Positions 11,089-25,361 of a DNA stretch of 32,456 bases are shown here, one piece after another. Position 1 is the first letter of the stretch. The number at the start of each line of letters is the position of its first letter. The DNA is from an uncultured delta proteobacterium (GTDB taxonomy: Bacteria; Desulfobacterota; Zymogenia; Zymogenales; Zymogenaceae): positions 1-32,456 of the forward strand of contig CAWBYW010000021.1 of NCBI GenBank assembly GCA_963792965.1, in the 5' to 3' direction. The notes beneath the pieces were generated by a model that saw only the letters and a program-made list of their open reading frames with translations, searched no databases and was not told the DNA's origin. The translations under genes were made by a program, and so were the position numbers.

Positions 11089-11249
11089 CGTGATTACTGA
11101 TTTCCTGCGATAGAAAAAGGAGATGGTCTTTTGTATCAGAAGCGCCGTCAAAAGTCAACATCCCGTCGGGTCGTGCTGACCATATCTCGGCCCAGAGGTG
11201 CTCGCGGATTCACATAATGATAGATAGTAAAATATATTCCAGATTTTCC

Positions 11250-11278
11250 TTGACATCCGATAAATAACGGCGTAAACT
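11250..11278 (+). promoter_or_regulatory. Sigma70-type promoter of RRM gene 1
   Basis: TTGACA-17 nt-TAAACT with an AT-rich upstream segment. Confidence 0.7.
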
Positions 11279-11284
11279 TAGTTA

Positions 11285-11491
11285 AAGATTGGGAAACGGT
11301 TCCTGATCTTGAGTGCTGCCGGAGAGGGAGTCTGACTACCTTCTTTGAGGTGATCAGCGAACTTTTCAGGCGGCTTTTTTATTATTCAATTCTCGTGTTT
11401 AATAATGCTTTCTATGAAGAGGTTCTGCTGCACTTCTCACTCCTACCTCCTCAGCGATCATTGTTAGCAGGAGAGTAAGAAGGAGTTGAAG
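11285..11491 (+). ncRNA. Conserved structured 5' leader of RRM gene 1 (candidate cis-regulatory RNA)
   Basis: Three hairpins shared with 12901-13110, showing compensatory changes (see findings). Confidence 0.65.
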
Positions 11492-11773
11492 ATGCAGGAA
11501 AACAAACTGTTTGTAGGAAACCTGAGCTATTCGGTAACGTCCGAGGCGCTCACCGAGCTCTTTGCCAACCACGGGTCGGTCGTTGAGGCCAAGGTTATCG
11601 AGGGGAAGGGCTTTGGATTCGTGGAAATGTCCACGAAGGAAGAGGCCGACGCGGCCAAAGAGGCTCTGAACGGCACGGACTATTCCGGCCGCTCCCTGAA
11701 CGTGGATACGGCAAAGCCGCCCAAGAGCAGGGACGACAGAGGTGGCGGCGGTGGTGGCTACCGGAGGTACTAA
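11492..11773 (+). CDS. RRM-domain RNA-binding protein with Gly-rich tail, copy 1
   Basis: RNP2 LFVGNL, RNP1 KGFGFVEM and C-terminal RGGGGGGYRRY. SD AAGGAG. Confidence 0.95.
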   Translation: MQENKLFVGNLSYSVTSEALTELFANHGSVVEAKVIEGKGFGFVEMSTKEEADAAKEALNGTDYSGRSLNVDTAKPPKSRDDRGGGGGGYRRY

Positions 11774-11796
11774 TCCGATAGTCTATTCCGACTAAG

Positions 11797-11826
11797 AAAA
11801 AGGGGGGATTATTCCCCCCTTTTTTT
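11797..11826. terminator. Intrinsic terminator (probably bidirectional)
   Basis: AAAAAGGGGGGA-TTAT-TCCCCCC followed by a T7 run, between convergent genes. Confidence 0.85.
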
Positions 11827-11842
11827 ATTTGTACGAAGTCAA

Positions 11843-12544
11843 TTATGCGCCCCGTGGAAGCCTTTGGGACAGACCGGGGCCGTGGGGACAGACGCTGCGG
11901 CACGCACGGCACGTGTAGAGACTATAACCTTTCTTGGTGACTATCGACGACGCCCGGCGGCACCGCTTCTGGTCCACCCCCGCGTCTGTGATCGCGTGCG
12001 CCGGGCACGACTCGATGCAGAGGCCGCACTCGTCGCAGCCCATGTCGCCCACAAGGACGGGATCAGGATCGAGGTCCGCGTCAACGAGCAGGGCGCCGAG
12101 GGTGATGCGGTTTCCGAAGACCGGGTTGGTGAGAATGGTGTTCTTGCCCATCGTCCCCAGCCCCGCAAGAGTCGCCGCATGCTTGAGCGACAGGATGCCC
12201 CGCCCCTCCCGTTTTTCCTCGTCCCAGAAGACGTAGGGCTCGCTCGGAACGGGGACCGCCGCGACCCCGGCGTCCTCGAGCTTCACCGAAAGGTCCAGAA
12301 TGAGACTGAAGACCGCCTGCATGGTCGTATCACACGCAAACGTGTACGGAACGGGATTAGGCGAGAGGAAGATGCCCTCCGGCAGCCTCTTTGCGACCAC
12401 CGCGACGGATTTCGCCCCGGGATAGATATCGGGCGGCCGGAAACCCTCGGGCGCCCCCGAGAATCTCGAAACGGGGGCGATGCCGCAGAGATCGGCGCCC
12501 GCCTCCCGCGAAAGCTCCTTCACACGCGCCGCCGTCATCATCAT
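11843..12544 (-). CDS. Epoxyqueuosine reductase (QueG)-like, cobalamin/4Fe-4S protein
   Basis: GADLCGIA, SLKHAATLAGLGTMGKN, FGNRITLGALL, CDECGLCIESCP...C...CRACRSVCP. Confidence 0.8.
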   Translation of the reverse strand: MMMTAARVKELSREAGADLCGIAPVSRFSGAPEGFRPPDIYPGAKSVAVVAKRLPEGIFLSPNPVPYTFACDTTMQAVFSLILDLSVKLEDAGVAAVPVPSEPYVFWDEEKREGRGILSLKHAATLAGLGTMGKNTILTNPVFGNRITLGALLVDADLDPDPVLVGDMGCDECGLCIESCPAHAITDAGVDQKRCRRASSIVTKKGYSLYTCRACRSVCPHGPGLSQRLPRGA

Positions 12545-12866
12545 GACTGCTTCACCTGACACCTCGTTCATTGGGTTTTGCGTCCTGCTTATAGAACTAT
12601 GTGACACTCGGATTGGGAAAAGGATTCGCCCTTGGCCCGTATCGCCGAAATAACGTACCGAAGGGGCCGCCCCGCGGTATCGGCATGCTTGTCCTTCGTT
12701 CGACCGCATATGCCGCCGTCTGACCTACGGGCGGACAACTGCTTTGTACCATAATCGGCCCCGAGAGTCAACAAACGGCCCGCCTCCCGCCCATCCGTCA
12801 CCCGGGCCGGATGGAAAACTCTCCGATCAGGTAATAGCTCATGTCCGGCAATATTAATATTTTTAC

Positions 12867-12895
12867 TTGACACGCGATAACCGGTGCGGTAAATT
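12867..12895 (+). promoter_or_regulatory. Sigma70-type promoter of RRM gene 2
   Basis: TTGACA-17 nt-TAAATT with an AT-rich upstream segment, at the same position relative to the leader as in copy 1. Confidence 0.7.
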
Positions 12896-12900
12896 TATAC

Positions 12901-13110
12901 TATAGCCAGGACACGGGGTCCTGAGTGTGGATGCTGCCTGAGAGTGAGTCTTAATATCTCGCTTGAGGTATCCGACAAATTCTCATGCAGCTTTTTAATT
13001 TCTTAGTTTCTCGTGTTTAATGATGTTGTTCTGCGTGGTGAGGTATGTCGTTTTCCTTCTCTCCGCCTCCTCAGGCGACCATTGTTAGATAGGAGAAAAA
13101 GGAGCTTAAA
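12901..13110 (+). ncRNA. Conserved structured 5' leader of RRM gene 2 (candidate cis-regulatory RNA)
   Basis: Homologous to 11285-11491. Shared blocks include TGCTGCC, TTGAGGT, GCTTTTT, TTCTCGTGTTTAAT, CCTCCTCAG and CATTGTTAG. Confidence 0.65.
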
Positions 13111-13395
13111 ATGCAGGAAAACAAGCTTTTCGTGGGTAACCTCAGCTACTCGGTGACCTCGGAGGCCCTCAGCGAGCTCTTCTCGGAATACGGAGAGGTC
13201 ATAGAGGCCAAGATCATCGCGGGAAAGGGCTTTGGGTTCGTTGAAATGTCGACCCTGGAAGAAGCCAACAATGCCAAAGAGGCATTGAACGGCAAGGACT
13301 TTTCCGGTCGCACCCTGAACGTGGACACGGCCAGGCCGCCCAAGAGCAGGGACGACAGAGGTGGGGGAGGCGGAGGCGGTTATCGGAGGTACTAA
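13111..13395 (+). CDS. RRM-domain RNA-binding protein with Gly-rich tail, copy 2
   Basis: LFVGNL and KGFGFVEM. Close paralogue of 11492-11773. Confidence 0.95.
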   Translation: MQENKLFVGNLSYSVTSEALSELFSEYGEVIEAKIIAGKGFGFVEMSTLEEANNAKEALNGKDFSGRTLNVDTARPPKSRDDRGGGGGGGYRRY

Positions 13396-13427
13396 TCCGA
13401 CCGGCCGTTTCTGAGAAAGAACCACAG

Positions 13428-13454
13428 AAGGGGGGATCATATCCCCCCTTTTTT
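13428..13454 (+). terminator. Intrinsic terminator
   Basis: AAGGGGGGAT-CAT-ATCCCCCCTTTTTT. Confidence 0.85.
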
Positions 13455-13548
13455 ATTTCACCGCCGACACGAAGCGGCGTCGTCCGGCCGCCTAAGTCAT
13501 CCGGACTGGGTAAGCCGGGGACTGGCAGGTAACCATATCAGGAATGAT

Positions 13549-23001: not shown

Positions 23002-23059
23002 AAAAAAAGGAAGCAACTACCAACGATCCTCAAGGAGTATCGTCGGTGGTTCTTCCTTT
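23002..23059 (-). terminator. Intrinsic terminator (attenuator) in the aor leader
   Basis: On the minus strand: GGAAG-AAC-C-ACCGACGAT-loop-ATCGTTGGT-A-GTT-G-CTTCC followed by T7, ~60 nt before the aor start. Confidence 0.75.
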
Positions 23060-23141
23060 GCAAACACGGCAGGGTAGCCGATTGCTCCGTTACCCTTATC
23101 GTCCCGGACATCCCAGGAGGATCTCCGGGATCGGAAGAGCC
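23048..23141 (-). ncRNA. Moco/Tuco (molybdenum/tungsten cofactor) riboswitch aptamer, P3-less type
   Basis: Minus strand: P1 GGCUCUUCC/GGAAGAACC, UCCGA junction, P2 UCCCGGA.AUCC/GGAU.UCCGGGA, P4 AGGGUA/UACCCU capped by a GCAA GNRA loop, and 3' CCUGCCGUGUUUGCAAAGG. As I recall it, this matches the Moco RNA 3' consensus CCUCCCGUAUUUGGAAAGG with a compensatory change. It lies upstream of aor and moaD-like genes. Confidence 0.85.
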
Positions 23142-23162
23142 GTTATGAATTAATGTAACTTA

Positions 23163-25284: not shown

Positions 25285-25361
25285 TGGGGTGGGTAGAGGG
25301 ACTTGAACCCTCGGCCTTCGGGGCCACAACCCGACACTCTAACCACTGAGCTATACCCACC
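25285..25361 (-). tRNA. tRNA-His (GTG)
   Basis: Cloverleaf with G-1, acceptor GTGGGTA/TACCCAC, D arm GCTC/GAGT, anticodon arm TCGGG-TTGTGGC-CCCGA, T arm GAGGG-TTCAAGT-CCCTC, C73 and encoded CCA. Confidence 0.97.

Follow-up and report, generated by a model that had tools for sequence, protein, structure and literature searches.

A conserved structured 5' leader upstream of small RRM genes in Zymogenia, a candidate cis-regulatory RNA outside the catalogued families

A stretch of DNA of 32,456 nucleotides (nt) from an uncultured member of the Desulfobacterota (class Zymogenia, family Zymogenaceae), hereafter called the window, carries two small genes, A and B, that encode proteins of 93 and 94 amino acids (aa) with 84% identity to each other, each consisting of a single RRM_1 domain and a Gly-rich tail. 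In front of both genes we found a conserved 5' leader with a folded structure and no match among the catalogued RNA families. It probably controls the amount of these RRM proteins, which are likely to act under cold stress. We consider it highly probable that the leader is a functional structured RNA. With about evenly balanced confidence, and arguing partly by analogy, we propose that it would act in cis, combining attenuation at one hairpin (P2) with control of translation or mRNA stability that depends on a long-range helix (P3), in response to the level of the RRM protein and/or to cold. The window corresponds to contig C21 of the source genome, which is 88.85% complete. In the following, host family, order, class and phylum are those of the source genome, and coordinates are positions of the whole window.

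The leaders of genes A and B are homologous, with 72% identity over 198 nt and 79% column identity when the promoters are included, and their whole-leader folding z-scores are -2.6 and -3.7. Within this paralogue pair alone, six of the 48 predicted base pairs have changed on both sides and still pair, which agrees with the initial annotation of this DNA, where the two leaders had been described as homologous and as keeping their pairing despite divergence. The three hairpins named there were all recovered by the energy computations for P1, P2 and P3. The elements of the two leaders are:

11285-11310, plus strand: P1 of leader A, an 11-bp hairpin at the 5' end with loop ACGG (-10.4 kcal/mol)
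11315-11374, plus strand: P2 of leader A, a 60-nt interrupted hairpin with base GCUGCC/GGCGGC (-28.4 kcal/mol, z -3.5)
11375-11380, plus strand: U6 run directly 3' of P2 in leader A, a terminator-like tail (seen in the sequence)
11390-11407, plus strand: 5' strand of P3 in leader A, UUCUC GUG UUUAAUAAUG, nearly invariant (covariation, alignment)
11419-11449, plus strand: inner hairpin P3b of leader A, GAGGU (11419-11423) paired with ACCUC (11445-11449) (covariation, alignment)
11459-11475, plus strand: 3' strand of P3 in leader A, CAUUGUUAG CAG GAGAG (covariation)
12907-12923, plus strand: P1 of leader B, CAGGAC, loop ACGGG, GUCCUG (-9.3 kcal/mol)
12933-12996, plus strand: P2 of leader B (12933-12991) followed by a U5 run (12992-12996) (-26.9 kcal/mol, z -5.6)
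13007-13025, plus strand: 5' strand of P3 in leader B, UUUCUC GUG UUUAAUGAUG (folding, covariation)
13040-13069, plus strand: inner hairpin P3b of leader B, GAGGU (13040-13044) paired with GCCUC (13065-13069) (alignment)
13080-13098, plus strand: 3' strand of P3 in leader B, CAUUGUUAGAUAG GAGAAA (folding, covariation)

P3 is a long-range helix between the segment that immediately follows P2 and the bases immediately 5' of the Shine-Dalgarno sequence (SD). The third hairpin of the initial annotation is thus present, but it is longer than had been claimed: the outer and core helix together comprise about 17-18 bp with a G.G mismatch and enclose the GAGGU/ACCUC hairpin. Similarly, the ACGG loop given for the first hairpin occurs in both leaders of the window, whereas the loop columns vary freely among relatives. 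In the core of P3, eight pairs beside the closing G-C, only three of about 466 cells are G-C and the rest are A-U or G-U; many of these positions alternate between the two. The inner loop of P3 varies in length; it contains an insertion of about 30-40 nt in the metagenome copies L102, L108, L112 and L120 and hence accommodates large additions. The loop of P3b in leader A holds a pyrimidine tract that resembles an anti-SD (CUUCUCACUCCUACCUCC).

Covariation was analyzed with two covariance models, R1 for the 3' domain (P3) and R2 for the 5' domain (P1 and P2). The alignments were fitted to these models, which favours the structure; the same helices were obtained with RNAalifold from a MAFFT alignment of 16 leaders. 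Across 22 leaders, 92.6% of the cells of P1 and P2 are paired, compared to 39-48% when the partner is slid. Twelve pairs of this domain (four of seven in P1 and eight of 17 in P2) have changed on both sides, a number reached by 44 of 500 shuffles, while none of 500 shuffles reached the 52 doubly changed cells. For P3, 96.0% of the cells are paired in 33 genome-derived sequences, and double changes affect ten pairs and 19 cells. The proportion is again 96.0% when metagenome copies are included (64 rows, 59 of them distinct), with 11 pairs and 28 cells doubly changed; in both sets, neither count was reached by any of 500 shuffles. Reverse-strand matches of R1 were excluded by E-value, and one minus-strand row (L085) remained among the 64. 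For each of the five pairs of P3b, at least one of the 59 distinct rows shows a change of both partners. Overall, covariation among homologues, which had been proposed as a check on the initial annotation, supports P1, P2 and P3. An additional helix flanking the SD (UUCAA/UUGAA) was discarded as weak, with 63.9% of its cells paired.

The leader is closely tied to RRM genes. A DNA search of 61 genomes detected it in eight of the nine other genomes of the host family, usually twice; host family, order and class comprise the same ten genomes (G000-G009) in our genome set. All ten contain two to three R1 matches each. Outside the host class, in 151 genomes sampled evenly across the phylum, R1 matched seven loci; they belong to six genomes from four further families, and all seven are directly upstream of RRM genes. 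Genome-wide in the host class, R2 gave 22 matches, each of which abuts an R1 match at an RRM gene, and it gave none at the loci from other families or at the third paralogues L011, L057 and L060-L062. P1 and P2 are restricted to the ten-genome host class and always found at RRM genes, while P3 is more widely distributed. A pattern scan of metagenome contigs yielded 62 stretches, 29 of which had an R1 match at E ≤ 0.001 (31 forward matches) and 14 an R2 match (16 matches in all). Altogether, 56 of 58 distinct forward copies of P3 are followed by an open reading frame (ORF) with the RRM N-terminal motif; of the two exceptions, one is cut by the contig end and the other, L096, stands before a different ORF. 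RRM_1 genes were found in 100 of the 151 phylum genomes and a verified leader in 11 of the 151; at the sensitivity of R1, the leader goes with only a subset of RRM genes.

Several candidate matches were rejected. Two DNA matches outside the host family (L020 and L021) resemble the terminator tail only and have no RRM gene downstream, and the weak R1 matches L068, L070, L071, L072 and L075 cover only the part with the SD and ATGCA and precede other genes. A search for related loci with the RRM protein, run on a Gly-run pattern, placed at least nine distant RRM genes among the matches listed; these were uninformative. We additionally observed that P3 of the metagenome contig copy L096 (10-127) precedes an ORF starting with MSDISHQDLNPPYRVLLGPGPSN that is not an RRM gene, and that 9 nt of this contig precede the match. 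At L067, L069 and L073 (genomes G079 and G041), P3 and the RRM start codon are separated by roughly 100 additional nt, which may represent a further structured element.

The source genome encodes a third RRM paralogue (G000:C13:7773-8051, minus strand; 63% identical; Pfam RRM_1). Its leader (L011, about 1782-2010) has kept P3 (GUUUGAUAAUGU/ACAUUAUUAAAC), lacks P1 and P2, and carries an orphan SD-like AAAGGGGGUGGU upstream of P3. In such type-2 leaders, which belong to the third paralogue, to other families and to metagenome copies, the place of P1 and P2 is taken by a different conserved segment with an orphan SD-like AAGGAGGUGGU. The inner-loop word CUAUCUUGCUUC.ACCUCC is conserved in P3 of both leader types. 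Because P3 is common to the two types, while P1 and P2 are replaced in type 2, P3 is the older core and P1 with P2 a class-specific addition.

The surroundings of the two leaders suggest that each RRM gene forms its own transcription unit, consisting of a sigma-70-type promoter, the structured leader of about 210 nt, the gene and a terminator:

11250-11278, plus strand: promoter of leader A, TTGACA-17-TAAACT (promoter scan)
11480-11494, plus strand: SD AAGGAG (11480-11485) and start codon (11492-11494) of gene A (seen in the sequence)
11492-11773, plus strand: RRM gene A, 93 aa, Gly-rich tail (Pfam RRM_1, E 9.5e-20)
11802-11825, plus strand: intrinsic terminator after gene A (-18.2 kcal/mol)
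12867-12895, plus strand: promoter of leader B, TTGACA-17-TAAATT (promoter scan)
13099-13113, plus strand: SD AAGGAG (13099-13104) and start codon (13111-13113) of gene B (seen in the sequence)
13111-13395, plus strand: RRM gene B, 94 aa, Gly-rich tail (Pfam RRM_1, E 4.3e-21)
13426-13458, plus strand: intrinsic terminator after gene B (-18.6 kcal/mol)

The promoters were located where the initial annotation had placed TTGACA elements, about 210 nt 5' of both RRM genes, and no further candidate was detected by the promoter scan within leader A or leader B. Both genes have a strong SD, and both terminators 3' of the RRM genes are of a G6/C6 type. The next genes 5' of the two units (a frame reaching 11151 and a 4Fe-4S gene) lie on the opposite strand, so that no read-in to the leaders would be expected from upstream. 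In 34 of 35 distinct leaders, TTGAC is found 34-39 nt 5' of the match to the 5' domain (R2). This nearly fixed distance between the -35 element and P1 argues that the leader is transcribed; if the promoters are used as we infer, the transcript would begin 2-4 nt ahead of P1. About 300 nt of apparently non-coding DNA (12560-12866) separate the promoter of leader B from the likely start of the 4Fe-4S gene, which lies on the minus strand.

At the gathering score, a scan of the whole window with Rfam 15 returned only a tRNA and a Moco riboswitch, both outside the leaders. The former lies at 25288-25360 on the minus strand; the latter, a Moco/tungsten riboswitch aptamer, lies at 23037-23148 on the minus strand with 39.6 bits (gathering score 36). 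When the threshold was relaxed to E ≤ 10 for positions 11150-13450, nothing was found within either leader and only terminator-like noise appeared after the genes, and ten related loci scanned at E ≤ 0.1 gave nothing in their leaders. That the initial annotation recognised no named RNA family is therefore borne out for both leaders and the ten related loci. We found no description of this leader in the papers that we searched. The lack of an Rfam match, the covariation, the tie to RRM genes and the fixed distance to the -35 element support the proposal, made from the window sequence, of an undescribed cis-regulatory RNA candidate. The closest named family, the Chlorobi-RRM RNA motif (RF01697), appears in a list in PMC2864571 as a candidate cis-regulatory RNA upstream of RRM genes in one lineage. 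Both RNAs are structured and precede RRM-domain genes, but the covariance model of the motif, by which we compared the two, gave no match here even at E ≤ 10. Our leader looks independent of Chlorobi-RRM and looks like a motif of the same kind.

The arrangement of the elements suggests how the leader could work. P1, only 2-4 nt from the presumed transcription start, would most likely shield the 5' end. P2 and its U-run could form a terminator within the leader. Of 35 distinct leaders, 33 have at least five consecutive T immediately after P2, and the leader contains what an attenuator calls for, a stable G+C-based stem with an immediate U-run. Since any transcript that reaches the gene must read through P2, this element would set or regulate the share of full-length mRNA. 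Further downstream, P3 encloses the small hairpin in which GAGGU holds the anti-SD-like ACCUCC. The part of P3 that is supported by covariation stops 2-6 nt 5' of the SD, which is left outside the helix. With P3 and the inner hairpin formed, the SD would be mostly free; in their unformed state, GGAGAG and the SD would be available to the pyrimidine tract for pairing. SD-like words (GAGGU, GGAGAG and AAGGAG) and anti-SD-like ones (ACCUCC, a pyrimidine run and the U-run) are both present in the leader, and alternative pairings are therefore possible. For leader A, folding predicts an SD that is 0% unpaired in the free ensemble and 75% unpaired when P3 is forced. The gap between P3 and the alternative exceeds 3 kcal/mol in 12 of 58 copies, and P3 is at or near the minimum in the rest. 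By analogy with cspA and with the cyanobacterial and Bacteroides rbp genes, the equilibria of P3 might be shifted by the RRM proteins, in a feedback, and/or by low temperature.

As cited in PMC13370968, the 5' untranslated region (UTR) of cspA from E. coli is a thermosensor with autoregulation. Our leader resembles it as a long leader of a small RNA-chaperone gene with alternative folds that affect the SD, which are predicted in our case; in cspA, the protein also feeds back on its own leader. In contrast, the gene encodes a cold-shock domain there and an RRM here, none of the Rfam cold-shock leader models matched, and the RRM leader has a terminator-like hairpin and gave no consistent cold-on signal in equilibrium folding. 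A role for the rbpA1 5' UTR of Anabaena variabilis was reportedly described by Ehira, Ohmori and Sato in 2005, a paper cited in PMC4152365. Cyanobacterial Gly-rich Rbp proteins are, according to the account given in PMC12232666, frequently cold-induced and cross-regulated. PMC13370968, a 2026 preprint, reports that the RRM-1 proteins of Bacteroides are needed in the cold, that their 5' UTRs are 122-155 nt long and that they are subject to redundant feedback, partly via the UTR; its authors leave open whether the Bacteroides rbp 5' UTRs are thermosensors. Like the genes studied here, the cyanobacterial and Bacteroides rbp genes encode a single RRM, often with a Gly-rich tail, and their long leaders are implicated in cold accumulation and feedback. 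They differ in belonging to other lineages and in that no shared structure is described, the likeness being one of gene type and description. Our leader also recalls the autoregulatory leaders of ribosomal proteins, in being a lineage-restricted structured leader before the gene of an RNA-binding protein that could bind it; it differs in that binding is a candidate only and that no mimic of a known RRM target was identified. Genes for cold-shock domains (PF00313) were found in two of the ten host-class genomes and not in the source genome, while all ten carry two to three leader-bearing RRM genes. Given this scarcity, the RRM proteins may fill the cold-shock role. The idea of a CsrA sponge was dropped, as no CsrA gene was found in the source genome at its completeness of 88.85%.

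A number of observations weigh against attenuation at P2 combined with P3-dependent control. As a terminator, P2 is atypical, being a 60-nt interrupted hairpin whose length kept it out of the results of a simple terminator scan. Inspection of the alignment by eye revealed no conserved antiterminator or complementary segment 5' of P2. For leader A at 37 °C, the alternative is favoured over the P3 fold by 13.1 kcal/mol. The alternative local fold is itself conserved, with 80.2% of its cells paired, and so is the pairing of the ACCUCC tract with the SD (anti-SD:SD), with 92.5%; neither shows covariation, because both strands hardly vary. Equilibrium folding of full leaders and of 3' domains gave no consistent cold-on signal. 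Throughout the temperature range, the SDs of 21 full leaders were mostly paired, with a mean unpaired probability of 0.09 at 5 °C that rises to 0.18 at 45 °C. The SD was only modestly less often unpaired than in composition-matched shuffles (0.137 compared to 0.239), with lower values in 18 of the 21 leaders that were rarely significant singly. In the 3' domains, more SDs open with heat than close, and accessibility increased in 16-19 of the 51 copies for which an SD value was obtained.

The folding predictions also bear on a purely RNA-intrinsic thermosensor, in which the weak P3 would form in the cold, melt in the warm and switch the leader between states with an open and a closed SD, all without a protein. 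The P3 core, almost free of G-C pairs, would suit such a device, and the predicted probability of P3, 0.66 at 5-25 °C, is down to 0.41 at 55 °C. The decrease is sharp in individual copies: in L083 the value is 1.00 at 15 °C but 0.14 at 37 °C, and in L082 it goes from 0.99 to 0.56. Five copies (L098, L085, L104, L136 and L112) have a more accessible SD at 15 °C than at 45 °C. cspA provides a precedent, as cited in PMC13370968. We nevertheless regard this explanation as unlikely, given the rise of accessibility with heat in the 3' domains and the position of the SD: whereas an RNA thermometer of the fourU/ROSE kind has its SD inside a weak melting helix, here the SD lies outside the A-U/G-U helix P3 that covariation supports. 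Moreover, the 5' strand of P3 is conserved beyond the needs of pairing, which would suit a protein site equally well.

Hairpins at the 5' end stabilise mRNA, and the position of P1 matches this effect. The leader might accordingly be constitutive, with P1 and P3 stabilising the mRNA and setting the efficiency of translation, P2 serving as a fixed leaky terminator and nothing being sensed. The missing antiterminator is consistent with this view, and so is the finding that no conserved junction resembles a ligand pocket. What makes it doubtful is the retention of the terminator in nearly all distinct leaders, which would be costly unless the terminator is used, as well as the regulation of the related csp and rbp families via their leaders.

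The leader could be a bistable switch made of copies of the words by which the ribosome recognises mRNA, a tentative reading to which we assign little weight. An anti-SD mimic, CACCUCC, which is like the 3' end of 16S rRNA, would pair alternately with the true SD and with a decoy SD, which is GAGGU or, in type-2 leaders, AAGGAGGUGGU. The RRM protein or cold would decide between the two pairings, and the U tail of the leader terminator would act as a second anti-SD in the read-through RNA. Such a switch could constitute a widespread module of the phylum for the RNA chaperones of bacteria without cold-shock-domain proteins.

It is rather improbable that P1, P2 and the U-run mainly give rise to a small RNA of about 95 nt that acts in trans, for example bound to Hfq, with the RRM mRNA as its read-through product. 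A promoter followed by a stable hairpin and a U tail is the typical shape of a small RNA, and Hfq is encoded in the source genome. Nonetheless, all 22 of the genome-wide matches to this module stand directly before P3 and RRM genes, at a fixed short distance to P3 and with no second promoter.

A metabolite-binding riboswitch, which the structured leader with its terminator-like expression platform could bring to mind, is very improbable: the downstream gene encodes an RRM protein in 56 of 58 copies and not a metabolic enzyme or transporter, the internal loops vary in length and contain insertions of 30-40 nt with no conserved unpaired core, and Rfam gave no match. Control by a leader peptide was rejected as scarcely credible: an AUG within the 5' strand of P3 (window 11405-11407 and 13020-13025; columns 131-133 of alignment A3) is present in 13 of 16 leaders and could open a small ORF, one of at least 12 codons from A3 column 128 or 131 in eight of the 16, but no SD precedes this AUG, the ORFs end differently (columns 206-231), half of the leaders have no ORF, and the region that follows is the most variable one, with indels that are not multiples of three.

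While the RNA motif described here is new, its kind, the structured leader of an RNA-chaperone gene, is already known. A role in RNA chaperoning and cold adaptation is emerging for small RRM proteins in bacteria in which cold-shock-domain proteins are lacking or under-used, as described for cyanobacteria and Bacteroides. Our results add a third lineage, with a leader architecture that is supported by covariation, more than 50 natural variants and two forms of the 5' half. The leader is a candidate new family for RNA databases, and it provides a well-defined RNA with which to test whether RRM genes sense temperature or their own product.

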